From an uncultured Candidatus Rokubacteria bacterium (GTDB lineage: Bacteria; Methylomirabilota; Methylomirabilia; Rokubacteriales; CSP1-6): DNA of 64,000 bases. The notes under the pieces are model-generated. The model ran no database searches. It had not been told where the DNA came from and saw nothing but the letters and a program-made list of their open reading frames with translations. Below, one piece after another: positions 5,938 through 20,320 of this stretch. The DNA lies in contig CAVUPM010000002.1 of NCBI GenBank assembly GCA_963743355.1, positions 2,546,825 to 2,610,824 of the forward strand. The letters run 5' to 3'. The translations under genes and the position numbers were made by a program. The first letter of the stretch is position 1. Each line of letters begins with the position of its first letter.

Positions 5938-7346
5938 GACTTCTTCCCCGCCGGCTTGGACGGCTCCGAGCGCTTCGGCGCCGCGGGCGCCGCGGGGCTC
6001 GCTTTCAGCTGGGTCTTCATCGCCGTCACGCGCTCACGCGCCCAGTCGCGCAGGCCGGAGTCGGGGCTGCGGCCGGCGACGGCCTCGTAGGCGGTCAGCG
6101 CCGCTTTCCACTCCTTCTGCTCCTCGCGCGCCAGGCCCAGCCCGGCCAGCGCGCGGTACCGCGCGCCGGCCTCGACGCCGCCGACCGCGCCGACCGCCTC
6201 GAACGCCTTGGCCGCCTGGGGAAAGCGCTTCAGCTTCAGCTCGGACTCGCCGATCAGCAGCCAGGCATCGGCGCGCACGGTGTCCTCGTCGCTCTGGGCC
6301 GCCGTCGCGCCGAGCGCGCTCGCGTCCTTCCAGTTCTTCTGCTTGAACGCCGTGTCGGCCAGACTGAGCGCCAGTCGCCGGGTGAGCGCGTGCTCGGGGA
6401 ACTGGCTCTTGAGCCGGCGCCAGGCGGCGTCGACGTCCTTGGGCCGCGAGAGCTGCCTGGCGATGTCCGCCGCCCGGGAGAGGTCCTCGGCGGTGGGCGG
6501 GCTCTGCTCCATCAAGGCTTTGTAGGCGTCGAGCATCTCGTCCTTGTTGCCGGACCGGCCGAGCGCCTGATTGATGAGCTTCTGCGCCACGGGCGCCTGC
6601 TCGTGCGACGGGTTGGCCGCGACGAACGCGCGCAGGTCGGCGAGACCGCCGCGCGGATCGCCGTTGTTGACCTTCACCCAGCCGAGCAGGTACTGGGCGT
6701 CGGGAATCAGCTTGGAGCTGGGATACTTCGTCGCAAACGTGGTGAGGAGCGGCAGCGCGTCGCTGGGGTGCTTGAGCTCGATCTGCGCCCGCGCGAGGTG
6801 CAGCGTGGCCGAGGGCGCCAGCGCGTGCTCGGGCCAGGTCGTCAGGAACTCGCGGAGCGCGGTGACGGCCGGCTCGGGGCGCTGCAGCTCGAGCTCGGTC
6901 CACGCCAAGCCGTACATCGCCTCGGGGGCGAGCGGCGAGGCGGCGTCGGTGCGCACGACTTCGTCGTACAGGGTCCGGGCCTCGCCGAATCGCTTGAGTC
7001 GGAACAGCGCCTCGGCCTGCCAGAACTTCGTCTCCAGCAGTTCGGCCGGCGCCGTGAGCGAGCCCTGCGTCCGGGCGAACGCCTCGAGGGCCGATTGCGG
7101 GTCGTTGAGGGCCAGGCGCGCCTTGCCGAGCATGACGAGGGCCCGGGCGCCGCGCGGGTCCTTGGGATACTGCGCGACGAACCGCTCGAGCGCGCGACGG
7201 GCGACCGGGTAGAACCGATCGGCCAGGGCCCGCTCGCCGACCATGAACAGACGATCGGCCTCGTCGAGCGCCGATACGGGGGCGACTGCGACCACCAGCA
7301 CCAGGAGCGCAGCGAGGGTCGAAACCATCGCCAGGCAGCGCTTCAT
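5934..7346 (-). CDS. Secreted TPR repeat protein, 470 aa, YbgF/CpoB-like architecture
   Basis: Signal peptide MKRCLAMVSTLAALLVLVVAVAPVSA; repeated TPR units; 4-bp ATGA overlap with the downstream TPR gene. Confidence 0.65.
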   Translation of the reverse strand: MKRCLAMVSTLAALLVLVVAVAPVSALDEADRLFMVGERALADRFYPVARRALERFVAQYPKDPRGARALVMLGKARLALNDPQSALEAFARTQGSLTAPAELLETKFWQAEALFRLKRFGEARTLYDEVVRTDAASPLAPEAMYGLAWTELELQRPEPAVTALREFLTTWPEHALAPSATLHLARAQIELKHPSDALPLLTTFATKYPSSKLIPDAQYLLGWVKVNNGDPRGGLADLRAFVAANPSHEQAPVAQKLINQALGRSGNKDEMLDAYKALMEQSPPTAEDLSRAADIARQLSRPKDVDAAWRRLKSQFPEHALTRRLALSLADTAFKQKNWKDASALGATAAQSDEDTVRADAWLLIGESELKLKRFPQAAKAFEAVGAVGGVEAGARYRALAGLGLAREEQKEWKAALTAYEAVAGRSPDSGLRDWARERVTAMKTQLKASPAAPAAPKRSEPSKPAGKKS

Positions 7347-7383
7347 GCCACCGAGCGTAGCACGGTCATAGTAAAGTCAGTGC

Positions 7384-8019
7384 GTGCGTTTGTGCGTGTT
7401 CGACCTGGATCACACTCTCGTCCACACCCCGCTGGACCTGGCGGCGATGGCGCTGGACATGCGCGCGACGCTGGAGCGCCGCTGGGGTCCCCTCCCGGCC
7501 CGCCCGGATCGCTACCGGGTCGGCGAGCTCATCGGCTGGTGCCAGGCGAATGCCCCCGACGCCGAGAAGCCACTCTGGGAGATCGCGCTCGATCACGAGC
7601 GCCGGGCCATGGCCATCGCCGCGCTCGAGGCCGGCGCGCGGGAGGCGATCGACGGCGCCCGCGCGGCCGGCTTCGCCACCGCGGTGTGGACGAACAACGC
7701 CCGTGAGGTCACGGCCGTCGCGCTCGAGCGATTCGAGCTTCTGCCCGTGCTCGACCTCGTGGTGACCCGCGACGAGATGCGGGCGCTCAAGCCCGACCCC
7801 GACGGCTGGCGCGTCATCCTCGAGCACTTCGGCCCCACGCGCGACGCCGTCGTCGTCGGCGACTCCTGGGTCGACGGCATCGCCGCCCAGGCGGCCGGCG
7901 TTCCCTTCGTCGCCTACCGCCCGAAGGAAGCCGACCTCGAGCGCTGGAAGATCACCCCGATCGCTCGAATCACCGATCTCGCCGCGCTGCCCGCCTGGCT
8001 TCGCCGGCGCGGGGCCTGA
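7384..8019 (+). CDS. HAD-superfamily hydrolase
   Basis: N-terminal HAD motif I in CVFDLDHTLVHT and C-terminal motif in VVGDSWVDGIAAQAAG. Confidence 0.75.
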   Translation: MRLCVFDLDHTLVHTPLDLAAMALDMRATLERRWGPLPARPDRYRVGELIGWCQANAPDAEKPLWEIALDHERRAMAIAALEAGAREAIDGARAAGFATAVWTNNAREVTAVALERFELLPVLDLVVTRDEMRALKPDPDGWRVILEHFGPTRDAVVVGDSWVDGIAAQAAGVPFVAYRPKEADLERWKITPIARITDLAALPAWLRRRGA

Positions 8020-12585: not shown

Positions 12586-13377
12586 CTACCGGCGTTTCGT
12601 GGTGTGGCGGCTCGACGGATATCGAGGAGCGCCCCGGCTCCGCCGGGGCGCTCCGAGCGTCGGGGGGGTCTGGGGGGCCATCTCGGGGCCCCCCATCAGG
12701 TCGAAGCGGGCCGGGCAGGAATCGCAGCGCGGGATCGTGCGGCAGTGTGCCTTGGCAACCGCGACCAGCAAGGCGTGGAACTCGTTGAAGAGCGCGGGGT
12801 CCGAGGGCAGGTGCGCCTCGAGGAACGCGCGCGTCTCCTCGTAGCCGGCGTGGAGCCGCAGCAGGCGGTGACGCACGAGCACGCGGCGCGTGTAGGCGTC
12901 GGCGACGAAGACCGGACGGCCGGCGGCGTAGAGCAGGATCGCGTCGGCCGTCTCCGGCCCCAGGCCGGGGACCCCGAGCAGCTCACGCCGCACGGGCCCC
13001 AGCGGCGCCCGGCGCATGGCGCGGAAGTCGCCGCCGAAGCGCTCGAGCAGCCAGCCGGTGAAGTCGAGCAGGCGGCGCGCCTTCAGGCGATAGGTGCCGG
13101 CCGGTCGCACCAGCGCGCCGAGGGCGACGACATCGCAGCCGGCCAGGCGTCTCGGGGTCAGCAGTCGATGGGCCCGGAGCGCGGCCACGGCCCGAGCGGC
13201 GCCCGGCCAGGCCGTGTGCTGGGTCAGGATCGCTCCGACGGCCACCTCGAAGGCCGTGCGGGCCGGCCACCAGCCCTGCGGGCCGTAGCGCGCCTGCAGC
13301 GCGCGGTAGAGCCGCAGCAGGCGCGCCTTGCTGGGATCGCGCGGCGGGCCGGGGATCCGGCGCCAGCCCGGCAGCAT
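12586..13377 (-). CDS. Endonuclease III-like HhH-GPD DNA glycosylase family protein with an atypical, repeat-derived C-terminus
   Basis: HhH-GPD motif LLGVPGLGPETADAILLYAAGRPVFVADAYTRRV; Fe-S motif HCRTIPRCDSC keeps 3 Cys but the fourth is replaced by a tail (MGGPEMAPQTPPTLGAPRRSRG...) encoded by the repeat element. Confidence 0.6.
   Translation of the reverse strand: MLPGWRRIPGPPRDPSKARLLRLYRALQARYGPQGWWPARTAFEVAVGAILTQHTAWPGAARAVAALRAHRLLTPRRLAGCDVVALGALVRPAGTYRLKARRLLDFTGWLLERFGGDFRAMRRAPLGPVRRELLGVPGLGPETADAILLYAAGRPVFVADAYTRRVLVRHRLLRLHAGYEETRAFLEAHLPSDPALFNEFHALLVAVAKAHCRTIPRCDSCPARFDLMGGPEMAPQTPPTLGAPRRSRGAPRYPSSRHTTKRR
12615..12712. repeat. Copy A of the dispersed GC-rich double-hairpin repeat element, overlapping the 3' end of the endonuclease III-like gene
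   Basis: Hairpin 1 GGAGCGCCCCGG-ctccg-CCGGGGCGCTCC (12-bp stem) and hairpin 2 GGGGGGCC-atctcgg-GGCCCCCC; about 90% identical to the copy at 44141-44225. Confidence 0.65.
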
Positions 13378-13393
13378 GGGACGGCCTGAGGCA

Positions 13394-14359
13394 ATGCTGG
13401 GCGTCATCATCCTGGTCCAGACTCTCGTGCTGGCGATTGCGGGCCCGGCGACCTCACCGGAGTATCTCCCGCTCCGCGTCGCCGAGGCCGAGGGGTTCTT
13501 CGCGCGCGAGGGTCTGAACGTCGTCCTGCGCACCACGCGGGCCGAGCCCGGCGCCGCCGAGGCGCTGGTGCAGGCCCAGGCCGACCTGGTCGCGACCTCG
13601 CTCGACGCGATCCTGCGCTTCGGTCCGCGCTCCGTCACGCAGGGCCCGCGGCTGGTGTTCGGGCTGACCGCGGCGCCGCCGGTCGCCCTGCTGGTACCGA
13701 CCTCCCAGGTCACGATCGTCAGGTCGCTGAACGACCTGCCGGGCACGCGCGTGGGACTGTCCAGCCCCGGCGCGCCCGAGCAGATGTGGTTCGGGTGGTT
13801 GCTGGCCCGGACGGGGCTCAGCGTGGCGCAGATGTGGGTCGTGAGCTACGGCAGCCGGGGCCTCGTCGCCGCGGTGGAGAGTGGCGACGTCCACTCCGGG
13901 CTCGTGCACGAGCCGGCGGCGTCGCGACTGATCGCGGACGGCCAGGCGCGGGTGCTCGTGGATCTGCGGAGCCCGGCCGCGGTCGCGCAGGCGATCGGCA
14001 CGTCGACGGTGAACGCCGCGGTCTTCGCGCGGGCCGACCGGCGGCCGCGCGACCGTGACCTCGGCGCCTTCGCGCGGGCCGTGCTCGCCGCCGAGCAGCG
14101 CATCGCGGCCGCCAAGGCGGACGACCTGGCCACGCGCCTGCCCAAGCGCATCGGCGCCGATGACTTCGCGACCCGGCTGGAGGCGACGCGAGCGATCTAT
14201 CTGCCCGACGGCCTCGTCACCGCCGACCAGCTCCGCGAGACGCTGGCGCTGATCCGCGCCCATCAGCCGCTGCCCGTCACCAGCCGGGTGCCTTCGCCGG
14301 AGGAGCTGCTCCACATCGAGCCTCTGCGCCGCGTCCTCAGCGCTCCGGCGGAACGCTGA
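13394..14359 (+). CDS. ABC transporter substrate-binding protein (NMT1/SsuA/TauA-like periplasmic binding fold)
   Basis: N-terminal signal/anchor MLGVIILVQTLVLAIAG and periplasmic binding-protein type 2 pattern; specific substrate not assignable. Confidence 0.55.
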   Translation: MLGVIILVQTLVLAIAGPATSPEYLPLRVAEAEGFFAREGLNVVLRTTRAEPGAAEALVQAQADLVATSLDAILRFGPRSVTQGPRLVFGLTAAPPVALLVPTSQVTIVRSLNDLPGTRVGLSSPGAPEQMWFGWLLARTGLSVAQMWVVSYGSRGLVAAVESGDVHSGLVHEPAASRLIADGQARVLVDLRSPAAVAQAIGTSTVNAAVFARADRRPRDRDLGAFARAVLAAEQRIAAAKADDLATRLPKRIGADDFATRLEATRAIYLPDGLVTADQLRETLALIRAHQPLPVTSRVPSPEELLHIEPLRRVLSAPAER

Positions 14360-14900
14360 CCGGCACCCCGAAGGCCGCCAGCAGCCCGGCCGTCTCCTCG
14401 AGCGGCAGCCCGACCACGTTGCTGAAGGAGCCCTCGAGCCCGGCCACCAGCGCGCCGCCGCGCCCCTGGATCGCGTAGGCGCCGGCCTTGTCGAGCGGCT
14501 CGCCGGTCGCCACGTAGGCCTCGATGTCGCCCTCGCCGTACTCGGCCATCCGTACCCGGCTCACCACCACCGTCGCCTGGGACCGTCCGGTGCGCGCGTC
14601 CACGACCGCCACGCCGGTAATCACCTCGTGCTCGCGCCCGCGCAACCGTCGGAGCATGACGCGCGCGTCGCCGGCGTCGGCCGGCTTGCCGAGCGCTTCC
14701 CCGTCGATCACCACGATGGTGTCGGCGCCGAGCACCACCCCCTCGCCCACGCGCGTCGCCACCGCTCGCGCCTTGTCGAGCGCCAACCGGGCGACGGCGT
14801 CGGCGAGCGGGCCGGGGGCGAGCGCTTCCTCGACGTCACTGGGCACGACGCGGAAGTCGGCGCCGAGCGAGCCGAGGAGCTCCCGCCGTCTCGGCGAGGC
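14337..14900 (-). CDS. maf: Maf-like nucleoside triphosphate pyrophosphatase (septum formation protein Maf); start codon unresolved
   Basis: SLILASASPRRRELLGSLGADFRVVPSDVEE... and AYAIQGRGGALV; no ATG/GTG/TTG in the roughly 25 in-frame codons upstream of the conserved N-terminus. Confidence 0.65.
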   Translation of the reverse strand, partial: ASPRRRELLGSLGADFRVVPSDVEEALAPGPLADAVARLALDKARAVATRVGEGVVLGADTIVVIDGEALGKPADAGDARVMLRRLRGREHEVITGVAVVDARTGRSQATVVVSRVRMAEYGEGDIEAYVATGEPLDKAGAYAIQGRGGALVAGLEGSFSNVVGLPLEETAGLLAAFGVPVSVPPER

Positions 14901-14935
14901 CGACGCGAGGATGAGAGACGGCGCCGCGGCGGGTC

Positions 14936-15856
14936 CTACGTGACGATCAGGGGGTGGGCGTCGGTGACCACGCGCGTCTGCGCGGCGATGGCCGCCCGGA
15001 TGTGCCGGGGCAGGTGGAACGCGTGCTGGTGGGTCTGGCCGTCCCAGTACGTCATCGGCCCCTTGATCCGCTCGCTGATGAGCCGGTCCACCGTCGCGGC
15101 GTCCTGCCGGAGGGGATCGACCTTCTTGGTGGCCGTGATGAAGCCCCACGGCGTGCCGAAGCAGGAGATGAACGTCTGGTAGCCGGCGACGACGGGGAAG
15201 ACCTCGCGCAGCGTGCGGTGGATCGACGTGAAGAAGTCGAGCTCGCCGAGCTTGGTCATGCCGGCTTGCAGGGTGAGCGCGCCGCCGGGAGTCAGGCGGT
15301 CGCGCACCAGGGTATAGAACTCCTTCGTGAACAGCAGACAGGCCGGGCCTTCTTCGAGCGGCTCGACCAGGTCGATCGTGATGAAGTCGAAGCGCTCGCT
15401 GGTCTTCTCGAGGTAGGCCCGGGCGTCCTCGTGCCGCAGCTCGGAGCGCCGGTCCTCGAACGCCCCCTGGTGCATCTCCGGCAGGTGTTTCTTGCAGAGC
15501 TCGACCACCTCGTCGTCGATGTCGACCATGACGGCGCGCCTGATCGAGGGGTAGCGCAGGATCTCGCGCAGGGTGGCGCCCTCACCCCCGCCGATGACCA
15601 GGCCCGACTCGGGGGCGCGCTCGGAGGCCAGCATGCCCGGGTGGACGAGGGCCTCGTGATAGACGAAGTCTTCGGCCTGGCTCGACTGGATCCGCCCGTC
15701 GAGAACCAGGACCTTGCCGTAGGCGTGGGTTTCCATGATCTCGACGTGCTGAAACTTCGTCTGAGCCTCGACGATCGTCCGCCGGATGGCGTGCATGTGG
15801 CCTTCGACGGCCGTGGTGGGCTCGAAGAACCACTTATAGGACTGCGGGGTGATCAA
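14936..15856 (-). CDS. speE: Spermidine synthase (putrescine aminopropyltransferase)
   Basis: WFFEP...HVEIMETHAYGKVLVLDG...VYHEALVHPGM...VIGGGEGATLREILR; probable TTG start overlapping the speD stop (TTGA). Confidence 0.85.
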   Translation of the reverse strand: MITPQSYKWFFEPTTAVEGHMHAIRRTIVEAQTKFQHVEIMETHAYGKVLVLDGRIQSSQAEDFVYHEALVHPGMLASERAPESGLVIGGGEGATLREILRYPSIRRAVMVDIDDEVVELCKKHLPEMHQGAFEDRRSELRHEDARAYLEKTSERFDFITIDLVEPLEEGPACLLFTKEFYTLVRDRLTPGGALTLQAGMTKLGELDFFTSIHRTLREVFPVVAGYQTFISCFGTPWGFITATKKVDPLRQDAATVDRLISERIKGPMTYWDGQTHQHAFHLPRHIRAAIAAQTRVVTDAHPLIVT

Positions 15857-16248
15857 CTGATGGCGACCGGGCTCTTGTTGACGACCGCCGACGGGGAGTT
15901 GATGAACATGCCCCGCTGCATCTCCACGACCGAGGCGCGCTCGGCCCCGAACTGCTCGACCAGGTAGTTGGCCGCCACCTCCGGCTGAAGGACGTCGCCG
16001 CACGAGAAGATGTCGACCGCGGCGTAACGGTACTCCGGCCAGGTGTGGATGGACAGGTGGGACTCGGCGATCACGACGACTCCGCTGATGCCGAACGGGT
16101 TGAACTCGTGGAACACCACGTCGACGATGGTGGCCTGGGCCCGCTTTGCCGCTTCGACGAGGGCGCCCTTGACACTTTCAAGATTGTTGATGGCGTCCGT
16201 GTCGCAGTCGAACAACTCGAGAAGCAGGTGCCGCCCCAGCGCGTTCAA
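15853..16248 (-). CDS. speD: S-adenosylmethionine decarboxylase proenzyme (class 1A, self-processing)
   Basis: MNALGRHLLLELFDCD...VVIAESHLSIHTWPE, with the ES/H processing site that generates the pyruvoyl group. Confidence 0.85.
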   Translation of the reverse strand: MNALGRHLLLELFDCDTDAINNLESVKGALVEAAKRAQATIVDVVFHEFNPFGISGVVVIAESHLSIHTWPEYRYAAVDIFSCGDVLQPEVAANYLVEQFGAERASVVEMQRGMFINSPSAVVNKSPVAIS

Positions 16249-16323
16249 TCCACTGACCCTCCTTTGTCCGGTCCGCCCATCTACCGCACCTCACTTGCGA
16301 CGTTGCGGTCGCGTCGCTGTTAC

Positions 16324-16342
16324 GGCGAAAAAGTTTTTCGCC
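16324..16342. promoter_or_regulatory. Perfect 19-bp palindrome GGCGAAAAAGTTTTTCGCC about 75 bp upstream of speD; candidate operator
   Basis: Exact inverted repeat with an AT-rich centre in an otherwise GC-rich intergenic region, followed by a GTGACAAAA motif. Confidence 0.35.
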
Positions 16343-16675
16343 GGTGACAAAATCTGTTTCACTGTATGGTCCGCAAACCCCCATTGCAAGAAAAAAACGC
16401 GTCTCGCCGCCGTTTCCGTCCCGTCTCTCTCCCGATTCACCTCACCGACAGCGCGCCGCGCGCCCGCGTGCGCACCTCGCAAGGCGCTTCACAGTCTCGC
16501 CGCGCGGTGGCGCGCTCCACGTGCTCGTCGCCCTCGCCTCGTGCAGCCTCGGCGGCGGGTTCTTCGTCTCACCGACGAGCCGCTCGCGCCCGCCGGCGCG
16601 CCGCGCGCACGCCGGTGTCGCCGGCGCGCGTACCGGCGGCCTGCTCGCGCGCCCGGCGGCCGCCGGAGCGGCGCG

Positions 16676-16745
16676 GTGACGTCACTTTTCTCTTGCGTTG
16701 AGTCGACGGGCCGGTAAAGTGACAAAAGATTTCTCTCCGCCCTGG
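16676..16745. promoter_or_regulatory. Cluster of GTGAC-containing inverted and direct repeats upstream of pdaD
   Basis: Palindrome GTGACGTCAC (16676-16685), inverted repeat GTCACTTTT...AAAGTGAC (16681-16733) and GTGACAAAAGATTTCTC (16729-16745); a related GTGACAAAATCTGTTTCAC lies at 16344-16362. Confidence 0.35.
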
Positions 16746-16796
16746 TGGCGGCACGGTGATTGGAGGCGAGATCCCAGCGTGAGGAGGAGCGAGCGA

Positions 16797-17276
16797 ATGA
16801 CGAAGACGGTGACGATGGCGGCAGCGACTGCGGGTCACGCAGAAGGCGGCACCACCCTCAATGCCTTCGACAACGCGCTTCTGGCCGCGGGCATCGGCAA
16901 CATCAACCTCATCAAGGTGTCGAGCATCCTGCCCCCCGAAGTGCCGGTGATCGACCTCCCCAAGATCAAGCCCGGCGCCCTGATTCCGACGGCCTACGCG
17001 GCCATCACCAGCGAGACGCCCGGCGAGACCCTGGCAGCGGCGGTCGGCTACGCCGTGCCCGACGACCCGGCCAAGAACGGCGTCATCATGGAGTTCCACG
17101 GGGTGGCGACGAAGGCCGAGGCCGAGCGGCAGATCCATCTGATGCTGGAAGAGGCGTTCCGGACCCGCGGCGAGGTCATCCGCGAGCGCGCGGTCTTCGC
17201 CGTCGAGCACACGGTGGAGCGGGTCGGCTGCGCGCTGGCCGCCATCACCCTGCTCGCGGACGAGGACCTCGTCTAG
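16797..17276 (+). CDS. pdaD: Pyruvoyl-dependent arginine decarboxylase
   Basis: ATG at 16797 with RBS GAGGAGGA; hallmark GNINLIKVSSILPP with the Ser-Ser self-cleavage site. Confidence 0.85.
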   Translation: MTKTVTMAAATAGHAEGGTTLNAFDNALLAAGIGNINLIKVSSILPPEVPVIDLPKIKPGALIPTAYAAITSETPGETLAAAVGYAVPDDPAKNGVIMEFHGVATKAEAERQIHLMLEEAFRTRGEVIRERAVFAVEHTVERVGCALAAITLLADEDLV

Positions 17277-17304
17277 GCCGGACGCGGCGGCAGTACCCGA
17301 CGGG

Positions 17305-18171
17305 ATGCGACCGGTCTCACCGCGCTTCATCGCCTGCGACCGGTCGCTCACCGACGGGCGGATCATCGTCTACGGCATCCCGTTCGAGGGCCAGGTCAAC
17401 CTCCGCAAGGGCGCCGACAGCGGTCCGCTCGACCTGCGGCTGGCCTCCGACTCCATCGAGACGTACTCGCCGTGGGTCGAACGCGACCTCGAAGATCTGG
17501 CGCTCGCCGACATCGGCGACTGTGAGCTGCCGAAGGACGTCTCGCCCCGCGAGCAGCTCGACGCGGCGCGCAAGCAGATCGCGGCCTGGTGGCGGCCCGG
17601 GCTGATCCCCTTCATGCTGGGCGGCGACCATACCTCGACCGTGCCGGTGATCGAGGTGCTCGCGCCCTCCTTTCCGGACCTGCGCATCCTGCAGCTCGAC
17701 GCCCACCCCGACACCCGCGAGGAGTTCCTCGGTGAGCGCTACAACTACGCCTCGGCGATGGCGCGGGTGATGGAGGTGGTCGAGCCGGCGCGCGTGTTCC
17801 AGGTGGGCATGCGGACGGGCTCGCGCGAGGAGTACGTGAACCGTCGGCCCAACTTCTACCCGGTGCTGGCCGGCCATCCGGTCGACGTCGTCCGCCGGCT
17901 CCTGCCCCAGCTTCGGCGCCACCCACTCTACGTGACGATCGACGTGGACGTGCTCGACCCGGCCGAGGCGCCGGGAACGGGCTCGCCGGAGCCCGGCGGC
18001 CTGCGCGTCCCCGAGCTGCTCGAGATCGTCCGCATGCTGGCCGACTGCCAGATCATCGGCGGCGACCTGGTCGAGGTCACCCACGCGTGGGATCCGAGCG
18101 GACGCACTGGCATCGCCGCCGCCTGGGTCATCCGCGAGGCCATGCTGACCTGGTGGGGCGACACCCGGTGA
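17305..18171 (+). CDS. speB: Agmatinase (ureohydrolase family)
   Basis: Arginase-fold metal-binding motifs GGDHTST, LDAHPDT, DVDVLDPAEAPGTGSPEPGG. Confidence 0.85.
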   Translation: MRPVSPRFIACDRSLTDGRIIVYGIPFEGQVNLRKGADSGPLDLRLASDSIETYSPWVERDLEDLALADIGDCELPKDVSPREQLDAARKQIAAWWRPGLIPFMLGGDHTSTVPVIEVLAPSFPDLRILQLDAHPDTREEFLGERYNYASAMARVMEVVEPARVFQVGMRTGSREEYVNRRPNFYPVLAGHPVDVVRRLLPQLRRHPLYVTIDVDVLDPAEAPGTGSPEPGGLRVPELLEIVRMLADCQIIGGDLVEVTHAWDPSGRTGIAAAWVIREAMLTWWGDTR

Positions 18172-18959
18172 CGTCGCGGCAGGGCGCCCGGCGCGAGCGT
18201 GAGTACACCGCGCCCCGGCTCTACGAGATCGCCTTCGACATGAACCGCAAGGGCGAGGTCGATTTCCTCGTCCACTGCTTCAAGCGCTACGCCCGCCGGC
18301 CGGTCAAGCGCGTGCTCGACATCGCGTGTGGCACCGGGCCCCACCTGGTCCGGCTCGCCGAGCGGGGGTACCGCATGGCCGGGCTCGACCTGTCCCGCCG
18401 CAACGTCGAGTTCCTCGGCGAGCGGCTGGCCGACAAGGGACTGGCGGGCGAGCTCGTCGTCGGCGACATGACCGACTTCCGCCTCGCGAAGCCGGTCGAC
18501 GCCGCCATCTGCATGCAGGACTCGCAAGGGCACCTGCTCACCAACGCGCAGCTGCTCGCCCACCTGCGAAGCGTGGCGGGCAATCTCCGAAGGGGCGGGC
18601 TCTACATCTTCGACCGCTACATGGCGTCGTCGTGGACGAACCCGGCGCGCTCGTGGTCGTGGTCGCGCCGCCGCGGCGGCCTGATCGTCCGCGCCTCGTT
18701 CTCGGCGCTGAACGACGTCGATCCGGTTTCCCAGGTCTTCAAGGAGCACATGACGCTGGAGGCCGTCGAGAACGGCACCCGTCGCGTGTACCGCCAGACG
18801 CATCTCTCGCGGATGGTCTTCCCCCAGGAGCTGCGCGGTCTCGTGGAGCTGGCGGGCGGGTTTGAGTTCGAGCAGTGGTTTTTCGGCTTCAAGCCGCACC
18901 AGCTCCTGGAGAAATCGAAGCACCCGCTGCTGATGGTGGTCGTTCTCAGGCGCACCTGA
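18168..18959 (+). CDS. Class I SAM-dependent methyltransferase, translationally coupled to speB (GTGA overlap)
   Basis: SAM-binding motif I VLDIACGTGPHLVRLAERG and motif II/post-I acidic residues; GTG start overlaps the speB stop codon. Confidence 0.65.
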   Translation: MTSRQGARREREYTAPRLYEIAFDMNRKGEVDFLVHCFKRYARRPVKRVLDIACGTGPHLVRLAERGYRMAGLDLSRRNVEFLGERLADKGLAGELVVGDMTDFRLAKPVDAAICMQDSQGHLLTNAQLLAHLRSVAGNLRRGGLYIFDRYMASSWTNPARSWSWSRRRGGLIVRASFSALNDVDPVSQVFKEHMTLEAVENGTRRVYRQTHLSRMVFPQELRGLVELAGGFEFEQWFFGFKPHQLLEKSKHPLLMVVVLRRT

Positions 18960-19065
18960 TCGACGGGCCGCCGAACAGCGGCCATCCGCGGCGTTGGCTC
19001 CTCGCTCTTCCCTGAGGCGCCTGCGGCATACGCCTCAGAGCTCGTGCACGAATCGCGTGGTCGAG

Positions 19066-19093
19066 GCGCGCCCCGGGTGTCCCGGGGCGCGCC
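19066..19093 (+). terminator. Candidate intrinsic terminator hairpin after the polyamine/methyltransferase operon
   Basis: Perfect palindrome GGCGCGCCCCGGG-tgt-CCCGGGGCGCGCC (13-bp stem), preceded by a second hairpin CTGAGGCG-11nt-CGCCTCAG at 19012-19038; no U-tract, as is common in high-GC genomes. Confidence 0.4.
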
Positions 19094-19141: not shown

Positions 19142-20320
19142 ATGCCCAGACTGACGGCGGTTGTGAGGCTCAAGCGCGGACGTGAGCAGAAGGCTCGGGT
19201 GCATCCGTGGATCTTCAAGGGCGATGTCGCCGATGCCAGCGATGTTGCGCCCGGCAGCATCGTGACGGTGGTGGATGCCGGGGGACGGTTCGTGGGGCGG
19301 GGGTTCTTCAATCCGCGGCCGGCGCTGTGCTGTCGGATCGTGACGTGGGAAGACGAGGCGGTCGACGCCCGGCTCCTGTCGCGCCGGCTCGTGGCGGCGG
19401 TCGACGCGCGGGGGCGCGGGGGAGCGGTGCCCGACGTCGGGCGGCTGGTGTGGAGCGAGGCGGACGGGTTGCCGGGGCTGGTGGTCGATCGGTACGGGCC
19501 GGGGCTGGTGGTGCAGTGTCTGACGCTGGGCATGGCGCGGGTACGGGATGACATCGTTGCCGGGCTCCGCGCCCGGGTCGGCGATCTCGCCGTGTTCAGC
19601 ATGGACGACGCCGTGGTGGCTCAACTGGAGGGCTTCGAACCGGCGGCCGGCTGGGTGGATCGGCCCGGGCCCGAGGAGATCGTGATCGACGAGGGCGGTG
19701 TGCGCTTCGCGGTGCGGCCCGGCGTCGGCCACAAGACCGGCGTCTACCTCGACCAGGCCGGTAACCGGGTAGCCGTCGGGGCCGCGGCCGGTCCCGGCGT
19801 CGCCCTGGACGTCTTCGCCTACACCGGCGGCTTCGCCTGCCACGCGCTCCAACGGGGCGCGCGGCGGGTGGTGTGCATCGAGTCCTCCCCCGAGGCCATC
19901 GCGGGCGCCCGCCGCAACCTCGAGCTGAACGGCTTCACCGAGCGCGCGGAAATCCGCGCCGTCAACGCCTTCGACGAGCTCCGCCGCCTGGACCGCGACC
20001 GCACCCGCTTCGACCTCATCGTCCTCGACCCCCCACCCTTCGCCCGCAGCCGATCAGCCCTGGACGCCGCCCTCCGCGGCTACAAGGAGATCAACCTGCG
20101 CGCGCTGCGCCTGCTGGCTCCCGGCGGCCGCCTGGCCACGTTCTCGTGCTCCCACCACGTGGACGAGACCACCTTCGAAGCCACCATCCGCGACGCCGCC
20201 ACCGACGCCGCCGTCCGTCTCCGCCTCCTCACCCGCCTGGACCAAGCCCCCGACCACCCGATCCTCCTGACCATCCCCGAGACCCGCTATCTGAAAGGAT
20301 TTCTCCTCCAAGCGCTGTGA
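19142..20320 (+). CDS. rlmI: 23S rRNA (cytosine1962-C5)-methyltransferase RlmI (PUA plus class I methyltransferase)
   Basis: N-terminal PUA-like region (RVHPWIFKGDV), SAM motif LDVFAYTGGFACHA, DPPPFARS motif IV. Confidence 0.8.
   Translation: MPRLTAVVRLKRGREQKARVHPWIFKGDVADASDVAPGSIVTVVDAGGRFVGRGFFNPRPALCCRIVTWEDEAVDARLLSRRLVAAVDARGRGGAVPDVGRLVWSEADGLPGLVVDRYGPGLVVQCLTLGMARVRDDIVAGLRARVGDLAVFSMDDAVVAQLEGFEPAAGWVDRPGPEEIVIDEGGVRFAVRPGVGHKTGVYLDQAGNRVAVGAAAGPGVALDVFAYTGGFACHALQRGARRVVCIESSPEAIAGARRNLELNGFTERAEIRAVNAFDELRRLDRDRTRFDLIVLDPPPFARSRSALDAALRGYKEINLRALRLLAPGGRLATFSCSHHVDETTFEATIRDAATDAAVRLRLLTRLDQAPDHPILLTIPETRYLKGFLLQAL

Follow-up and report, generated by a model that had tools for sequence, protein, structure and literature searches.

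Bacterial polyamine biosynthesis has been mapped in detail, and to our knowledge no described bacterial route contains a methylation step that depends on S-adenosylmethionine (SAM). The Methylomirabilota/Rokubacteria, among the most abundant uncultured soil phyla, are the source of the DNA considered here, a 64,000-nucleotide (nt) stretch of contig CAVUPM010000002.1 from an uncultured Candidatus Rokubacteria bacterium (referred to below, at its full length, as the window). It carries a polyamine locus in which pdaD and speB are followed by a gene for a 263-amino-acid (aa) class I SAM-dependent methyltransferase (MT). The polyamine cluster itself is ordinary; the novelty lies in a conserved, coupled and sharply delimited clade of MT proteins.

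Among described pathways, the closest is the N1-aminopropylagmatine route of Thermus thermophilus and Thermococcus. The Thermus aminopropyltransferase is regarded as a bifunctional N1-aminopropylagmatine/thermospermine synthase, and this route may be the default wherever an arginine decarboxylase supplies agmatine (PMC11107197). The locus in the window resembles that system in its archaeal/Thermus-like gene set of PdaD, SpeB and a class 1b SpeD and in a SpeE whose nearest solved counterpart is T. thermophilus SpeE. However, the described pathway contains no methyltransferase, the present host belongs to a mesophilic soil phylum, and the substrate preferences of SpeE and SpeB are here predicted. 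For polyamine N-methylation, a literature search returned only plant enzymes whose ancestry lies in spermidine synthases, namely putrescine N-methyltransferase and, in coca, spermidine N-methyltransferase (PMC3725402, PMC9894180). They would be functional analogues of the MT if it does act on a polyamine. The plant enzymes have the Spermine_synth fold, whereas Pfam finds no Spermine_synth domain in the MT, which would then be a nonhomologous, convergent solution.

Linkage of the methyltransferase to polyamine genes

MT orthologues, defined by at least 43% identity, were collected at 164 loci from a genome collection, a metagenome collection and exact-protein look-ups; 155 of the 164 had enough upstream DNA to be read. 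The scan of the genome collection (alignment A3) gave only Methylomirabilota metagenome-assembled genomes (MAGs), at 72 to 95% identity. In a homologue library reduced to 50%-identity representatives, the clade lies at 51% identity or above, one protein (P0127) stands alone at 43%, and the rest reach no more than 38%. In all 155 readable loci, the gene directly upstream of the MT gene on the same strand is a polyamine gene: speB in 140, a speE-type aminopropyltransferase gene in eight, pdaD in six, and speB at a distance of 417 bp in the remaining locus. A preliminary description of the window, made from its sequence, had offered a tie between the MT and the polyamine pathway as speculation, for which neighborhood conservation would be the check. 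Co-occurrence with speB, pdaD or speE was found in every informative locus and through several independent rearrangements, and the linkage of the MT to the polyamine operon is solid.

The architectures observed were pdaD-speB-MT, speB-MT, pdaD-MT, pdaD-speB-speE2-MT, ODC-like-speE2-MT (ODC, ornithine decarboxylase) and pdaD-speB-MT-speE3. Absence of pdaD was seen in approximately 17 species and absence of speB in six, the latter putting pdaD directly before the MT gene. In L079, L117, L132, L153, L162 and L166, pdaD-speB is replaced wholesale by genes for a decarboxylase dependent on pyridoxal phosphate (PLP) and a canonical SpeE (speE2). The decarboxylase-speE2-MT cassettes lie at 78-2937 in L079, 2935-5750 in L117, 1968-4798 in L132 and 62-2845 in L087. 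The replacement decarboxylase is nearest to the lysine/ornithine decarboxylases 2PLJ and 5GJM (5e-90), and the canonical SpeE of these relatives scores 343 to 375 bits on TIGR00417/NF002010, above the cutoffs. Judged from these matches, the swap would replace the operon's arginine/agmatine route by one that starts from ornithine (or lysine), with the MT retained. MTs from decarboxylase-speE2-MT loci fall in five or more separate places on a neighbor-joining tree of the MT proteins, and those from pdaD-MT loci in three or more. The common denominator of every architecture is an aminopropyltransferase together with the MT, whichever route supplies the diamine.

An extra aminopropyltransferase gene was found before the MT gene in L093 (3722-4765) and after it, ahead of rlmI, in L154 (2277-3242), L021 (7208-8134) and L016 (approximately 6793-7632). 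These inserted genes encode divergent paralogues that score below the spermidine synthase cutoffs, and their position hints that some of these organisms may make longer polyamines.

One locus, L087, stands apart. At 37% G+C, with AT-rich codon usage, compared with approximately 70% in the other loci, it clearly comes from a different kind of organism. It carries genes for a Lys/Orn decarboxylase-like protein, a canonical SpeE and the MT, separated by gaps of 9 to 16 nt, with products that are 56 to 57%, 67% and 45% identical, respectively, to those of the Methylomirabilota cassette. The MT gene is followed there by a convergent response-regulator gene, and rlmI is not adjacent. A metagenome scan centered on P0127 found no closer relative (maximum identity, 51%), and L087 therefore stays a single independent data point.

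Translational coupling is likewise conserved. In the window, the preliminary description had noted tight spacing on the plus strand and a GTGA overlap of the MT gene with speB; the overlap, of the speB stop with a GTG start of the MT gene, is read in the sequence at 18168-18171, and the gap between pdaD and speB is 28 nt. The GTG start is favored because initiation at the next ATG (18240) would delete a conserved N-terminal motif, Y13...Y19-x-I-A-F (Y13, P16, Y19, A22 and F23). The median distance from the speB stop to the codon for Tyr13 is 26 nt across 139 relatives, from which it follows that the MT start overlaps or abuts speB in approximately 88% of loci. The surrounding block, murG-nth-NMT1-maf-speE-speD on one side and pdaD-speB-MT-rlmI on the other, is syntenic across the phylum. 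As most loci come from this one phylum, the raw counts overstate independence, and it is the rearrangements that carry information.

Loci of a sister clade (P0277 locus 1-1382; L083 238-1125) contain a further speE paralogue approximately 5 kb upstream, which in one of the two adjoins a gene of the LOG/Lysine_decarbox family.

Fold and active site of the methyltransferase

Pfam matches of the MT are confined to generic methyltransferase domains, and no curated NCBIfam equivalog, BchM included, approaches its cutoff. The daptide amine MT scores highest (51.7 bits against a cutoff of 175), followed by the corrinoid-protein-associated MT CpaM at 40 bits and glycine/sarcosine N-MT at 37.6 bits. 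UbiE, the ubiquinone enzyme, reaches 19.5 bits against 216, and Rmt 21.7 bits against 250. Readings of the protein as a ubiquinone, rRNA or DNA methyltransferase were rejected on these profile scores and the fold ranking. The name "DNA methyltransferase" given by one source to P0098 is unsupported in these profile and fold scans. Grouping with rRNA or ubiquinone methyltransferases, the outcome that would have spoken against the proposal in the preliminary description, was not seen; the folds that match best belong to N-methyltransferases acting on small-molecule or peptide amines.

By sequence, the top matches in the PDB were PH1305 (1WZN), DesVI, TylM1, KedS8, CalS10, CypM and GNMT. A structural model built with AlphaFold2 (AF2) from an alignment reached a pLDDT of 90.9 and a pTM of 0.88 (a single-sequence model reached a pLDDT of only 36), and it predicts a Rossmann core with a C-terminal beta-strand cap. 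The characterized whole-fold matches were CypM, DesVI, TylM1, CalS10, KedS8, CcbJ, NmbA, GSMT and GNMT; all are small-molecule or peptide MTs, and most of them are amine N-MTs. The features of a cap-type N-methyltransferase, a Rossmann core with motif I and a C-terminal cap over the whole fold, are both present in the MT. The protein has no RNA-binding module of the PUA, THUMP or S4 type, as both Pfam and the AF2 model show MT core and cap only, and longer "fusion" homologues of 318 to 574 aa contain no second Pfam domain.

Three groups of characterized or solved proteins bear comparison. With TylM1 and DesVI, the dTDP-amino-sugar N,N-dimethyltransferases, and their relatives CalS10, KedS8 and CcbJ, the MT shares the SAM motif DxACGTG and a Ser/His pair. 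Identity is only 21 to 23%, however, no sugar-nucleotide biosynthesis genes lie near the MT gene, and the MT is strongly basic. In the HMMER alignment, the mutagenized active-site residues Ser120 and His123 of TylM1 correspond to Ser119 and His122 of the MT, whereas Phe118 and Ser119 of TylM1 are replaced by Gln117 and Asp118. CypM, the daptide MT and NmbA share the cap-type fold with the MT, and primary-amine N-methylation is their reaction, on a peptide terminal amine or on the cysteinyl amine of bacillithiol. NmbA matches a profile of the MT clade with an E value of 5.9e-17, but the scores fall far under the family cutoffs and neither RiPP nor bacillithiol genes occur near the MT gene. These proteins have been grouped as natural-product methyltransferases with a four-strand cap in the paper on NmbA (PMC12719100). 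The structural-genomics methyltransferases PH1305 (1WZN), 3D2L and 1Y8C are 15 to 25% identical to the MT; they have no assigned function, so they give no clue to the substrate, and for PH1305 the literature offered a two-hybrid partner only.

Ser119 and His122 are at least 97% conserved in the 164 orthologues and are not kept across the wider family. They lie in a block, C115-M-Q-D-S-Q-G-H-L-L124, that is at least 97% identical in the same set, and the clade also keeps Asp118 and many aromatic (Trp/Tyr/Phe) and acidic (Asp/Glu) positions.

Substrate of the methyltransferase

What the genes are, how they are coupled and linked, and the fold class of the MT are established by the analysis; in the scheme that follows, the substrate and the N-methylation chemistry are inferred. 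PdaD would cleave itself to a pyruvoyl enzyme that converts arginine to agmatine, and SpeD, a class 1b pyruvoyl enzyme, would make decarboxylated SAM. The Thermus-type SpeE would aminopropylate agmatine and/or putrescine, and the SpeB-family ureohydrolase would take off urea, with N1-aminopropylagmatine or putrescine leading to spermidine. The MT, product of the last and translationally coupled gene, would be a tailoring enzyme, an N-methyltransferase with the TylM1/DesVI/CypM/NmbA type of structure, and would transfer methyl groups from SAM to a primary amine of the aminopropylated product (spermidine or a longer polyamine). That the MT methylates an amine of the polyamine pathway, most plausibly this aminopropylated product, is our best single guess, and a tentative one. 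It is favored because the linkage outlasts the cassette swaps and recurs in an unrelated genome, because the coupling to speB is tighter than that to rlmI, and because both the Ser/His pair and the fold class suit N-methylation of an amine. A bolder form of the proposal, to which we give slightly less credence, is that the clade represents the first bacterial polyamine N-methyltransferase and makes N-methylated spermidine/thermospermine as a normal constituent of the Methylomirabilota/Rokubacteria. The evidence also allows a variant in which the MT methylates only polyamines that are attached, by binding or by conjugation, to an anionic partner such as RNA, a cell-wall precursor or lipid, and such a substrate would explain the conserved and presumably basic surface.

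A phylum-wide coupled MT in polyamine operons may mean an undescribed polyamine modification. Alternatively, polyamine supply may be tied, through regulation or physically and in a way so far unrecognized, to the methylation of an anionic cell component. With a small MT, sharply delimited orthologues and a cassette of three or five genes that can be expressed, the question is directly testable.

Several observations weigh against methylation of a polyamine amine. One is charge. The MT of the window has a predicted pI of 10.2 and a net charge of +14; the median pI of 235 MT proteins (at least 66% identity) is 10.4, with a net charge across the clade of approximately +16. Among 29 sister-clade proteins the median pI is 9.9, the low-G+C member has a pI of 8.8, and every member lies above 8. 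Lys or Arg occupies 23 alignment columns in at least 85% of orthologues and Asp or Glu only 16; many of the conserved Lys/Arg columns fall in the N-terminal helices and the cap, including R167-R169 in a cap hairpin. SpeD, PdaD, SpeB and SpeE of the same operon are acidic (pI 4.8 to 6.0), as enzymes and binding proteins for free polyamines generally are. The conserved basic character of the MT suggests an anionic partner. The neighborhood adds to the case, since rlmI lies downstream of the MT gene in 140 of approximately 149 informative loci, with a median gap in the relatives of 73 nt and a gap of 20 nt or less in 30%, and is probably cotranscribed with it in many of them. Neither rlmI nor maf belongs to the pathway, yet the synteny of both is nearly as tight as that of the MT gene, and operon membership therefore does not imply a pathway role. 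Nearly all loci, moreover, come from one strongly syntenic phylum, L087 being the only clearly independent one. No polyamine gene was seen in eight sampled contexts of MT homologues with 38% identity or less. The wider family extends to reduced genomes (a Kuenenbacteria MAG and an Aenigmatarchaeota MAG), and its sampled basic members adjoin genes for PheRS/TrpRS/TyrRS, GlyRS, S28e/L24e or RecJ/RNase H, so that these contexts have a housekeeping flavor. Finally, the literature search found no bacterial N-methyl polyamine from such an enzyme and nothing on the MT family.

Both the charge and these housekeeping neighbors would be accommodated if the target of the MT were an anionic component of the translation machinery, whether rRNA, tRNA or an acidic protein (ribosomal or a factor). 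The MT gene would then share a growth-related housekeeping block with rlmI, maf and the polyamine genes and be co-expressed with the latter, while its product would not act on polyamines. A pI near 10, the 23 Lys/Arg columns, the rlmI gene downstream, the position of maf directly after speE, and the basic wider members beside tRNA synthetase, ribosomal protein and RecJ/RNase H genes all fit such a target. We nonetheless consider it unlikely. The MT consists of core and cap without any of the RNA-binding modules sought, the L087 gene follows an ODC-speE pair with no rlmI beside it, an aminopropyltransferase gene separates the MT gene from rlmI in L016, L021 and L154, and the MT gene is coupled more tightly and more consistently to speB than to rlmI. 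Chance retention is the explanation that we find hardest to credit: an unrelated MT would simply never have been separated from the polyamine locus in a strongly syntenic phylum. Synteny of the whole block, from murG to rlmI, speaks for such an accident; against it stand the retention of overlapping or abutting stop and start codons, an upstream cassette that was repeatedly swapped without dislodging the MT, and the same three-gene cassette in a genome of 37% G+C.

Between these lies the suggestion that the MT N-methylates an anionic amine at the edge of polyamine metabolism, such as an amino-acid precursor or a carboxylated or conjugated polyamine (carboxy-, glutamyl- or cell-wall-linked), or an unrelated small molecule or peptide. 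Its basic cap would then hold a carboxylate or phosphate group, much as dTDP is bound by TylM1 and glycine by GNMT. Substrates of the fold class are often anionic amines (dTDP-amino sugars, bacillithiol and glycine), an Arg cluster is conserved in the cap, Ser119 and His122 lie beside the methyl-transfer site, and the operon linkage would be squared with the basic pI. We hold this to be improbable nevertheless, as no gene for a conjugating or carboxylating step was seen beside the MT gene in any architecture, neither arginine nor ornithine is common to both cassette types, and the suggestion derives from charge alone. Methylation of a polyamine-pathway amine thus stays the preferred, if tentative, reading.

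On an archaeal contig (L088 2-2307; L089 630-2920), the gene for a 36%-identical MT homologue overlaps the stop codon of a gene for an AMP-binding (acyl-adenylate-forming) enzyme. This coupling, different yet equally tight, might indicate the ancestral substrate class.

Locus layout, polyamine enzymes and regulatory surroundings

The locus lies in a window of approximately 72% G+C, and each gene of the region has its nearest relatives in Candidatus Rokubacteria/Methylomirabilota MAGs. All five genes of the preliminary description, with speD-speE on the minus strand divergent from pdaD-speB-MT on the plus strand, are present as open reading frames with Pfam and NCBIfam support (Table 1). On the minus strand the order of transcription is speD, speE and maf, the limits of maf being approximate; on the plus strand the MT gene is followed, after a gap of 182 nt, by the RlmI-like gene. 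A search of the rest of the window for paralogues of the MT gene, of speE2 and of the ODC-like gene found none.

Table 1. Features of the polyamine locus and its surroundings (positions in the window)
Feature	Position	Strand	Evidence or remarks
NMT1/THI5-like periplasmic-binding-protein gene	13328..14359	+	
maf, Maf-like nucleotide pyrophosphatase	14340..14939	-	PF02545, E = 1.8e-61
speE, Thermus-type polyamine aminopropyltransferase	14936..15856	-	PF01564, 7e-41; PF17284; TTG start
speD, small pyruvoyl-dependent S-adenosylmethionine decarboxylase proenzyme, class 1b type	15853..16248	-	TIGR03330, 148.8 bits
speD-pdaD divergent spacer	16249..16796		548 bp
Hairpin in speD leader	near 16314..16328		GGCGAAAAA/TTTTTCGCC
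Promoter-like element for speD	16389..16361	-	TTGCAA-N17-TACAGT
Promoter-like element for pdaD	16693..16720	+	TTGCGT-N16-TAAAGT
pdaD, pyruvoyl-dependent arginine decarboxylase proenzyme	16797..17276	+	TIGR00286, 157.8 bits; ATG start; ribosome-binding site (RBS) GAGGAGG
speB, agmatinase-family ureohydrolase	17305..18171	+	TIGR01230, 200.2 bits; PF00491, 2.6e-63
Class I SAM-dependent MT, 263 aa	18168..18959	+	Methyltransf_25, E = 1.4e-14; GTG start
Perfect 13-bp GC hairpin, MT-rlmI spacer	19065..19093	+	GGCGCGCCCCGGG-TGT-CCCGGGGCGCGCC
RlmI-like 23S rRNA (cytosine-C5) methyltransferase	19142..20320	+	PF17785 (PUA), PF10672 (Methyltrans_SAM)

PdaD is an equivalog-level match, exceeding the TIGR00286 cutoff of 106.95 bits and matching PF01862 at 3.2e-42, and it aligns with the pyruvoyl-dependent arginine decarboxylase PvlArgDC of Methanocaldococcus jannaschii (1N2M/1MT1). 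The self-cleavage site named in the preliminary description is present, as NLIKVS/SILPP aligned to Ser52/Ser53 of the M. jannaschii enzyme, with two serines where three had been written. The solved beta chain aligns to residues 8 to 42 and the alpha chain to residues 44 to 152, giving a predicted cleavage at VS42/S43ILPP. The same description had called both SpeD and SpeE pyruvoyl enzymes of class 1A; the class is wrong for SpeD, and the pyruvoyl label is wrong for SpeE. SpeE is an aminopropyltransferase, and SpeD, with 131 aa against approximately 264 aa for the Escherichia coli type, matches only the Bacillus subtilis-type model (cutoff for TIGR03330, 75.65 bits). This small B. subtilis/Thermotoga maritima type belongs to class 1b under standard nomenclature. 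The SpeD proenzyme aligns end to end, over 115 residues, with the T. maritima S-adenosylmethionine decarboxylase 1TLU, including AESHLSIHTWPE, and its predicted processing site, AES/HLSIHTWPE, corresponds to Glu62/Ser63 of that enzyme.

SpeE scores just below the cutoffs for canonical spermidine synthases (214.9 against 249.55 bits for TIGR00417 and 259 against 260 for NF002010). Among solved structures its closest relative is the triamine/agmatine aminopropyltransferase SpeE of T. thermophilus (3ANX/1UIR; 6.7e-74 over the full length), followed by the plant thermospermine synthase 6BQ2. SpeB passes the TIGR01230 cutoff of 174.3 bits and retains the metal-ligand motifs GGDH, DAHPD and DVDVLDP in its translation, its best solved relative being 3LHL; with a Thermus-type SpeE as partner, its substrate could be either agmatine or N1-aminopropylagmatine. 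Taken together, these assignments indicate a cluster for the biosynthesis of spermidine and possibly thermospermine.

The speD stop and the TTG start of speE share a TTGA overlap (15856-15853), and the TTG start of speD is preceded by the RBS AAAGGAGGG. The maf gene comes immediately after speE, in the same orientation, and is syntenic in nearly all relatives. No ATG, GTG or TTG separates the speE stop (TAG, 14938-14936) from the conserved Maf N terminus LILASASPRR (window 14860-14960, minus strand), so the start of maf is either a noncanonical codon or a site that lies within speE by more than 100 nt. The NMT1/THI5-like gene lies between nth and maf and belongs to the phylum-wide syntenic block. 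The RlmI-like protein scores 312 bits on NF053718, under the cutoff of that model.

The spacer between speD and pdaD is GC rich and of unusual length in the window, and its length is not conserved, ranging from 60 to 1,020 bp (median, 328) in 99 relatives. Its only conserved blocks in these relatives are the plus-strand hexamers of the promoter-like element and the RBS of pdaD; a consensus scan gave no sigma-70 site at the threshold used and a single terminator-like hairpin, in the speD leader. No Rfam family matched between 14000 and 20500, and an RNA element in this long spacer was rejected on that ground, together with the variable length and the restriction of conservation to the hexamers and RBS. 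The hairpin near 16314-16328 in the speD leader follows the minus-strand TTGCAA-N17-TACAGT. The spacer between the MT gene and rlmI as a whole has a fold z-score of -2.1; its hairpin, composed of GC pairs only and lacking a U tract, is possibly a terminator or an attenuator.

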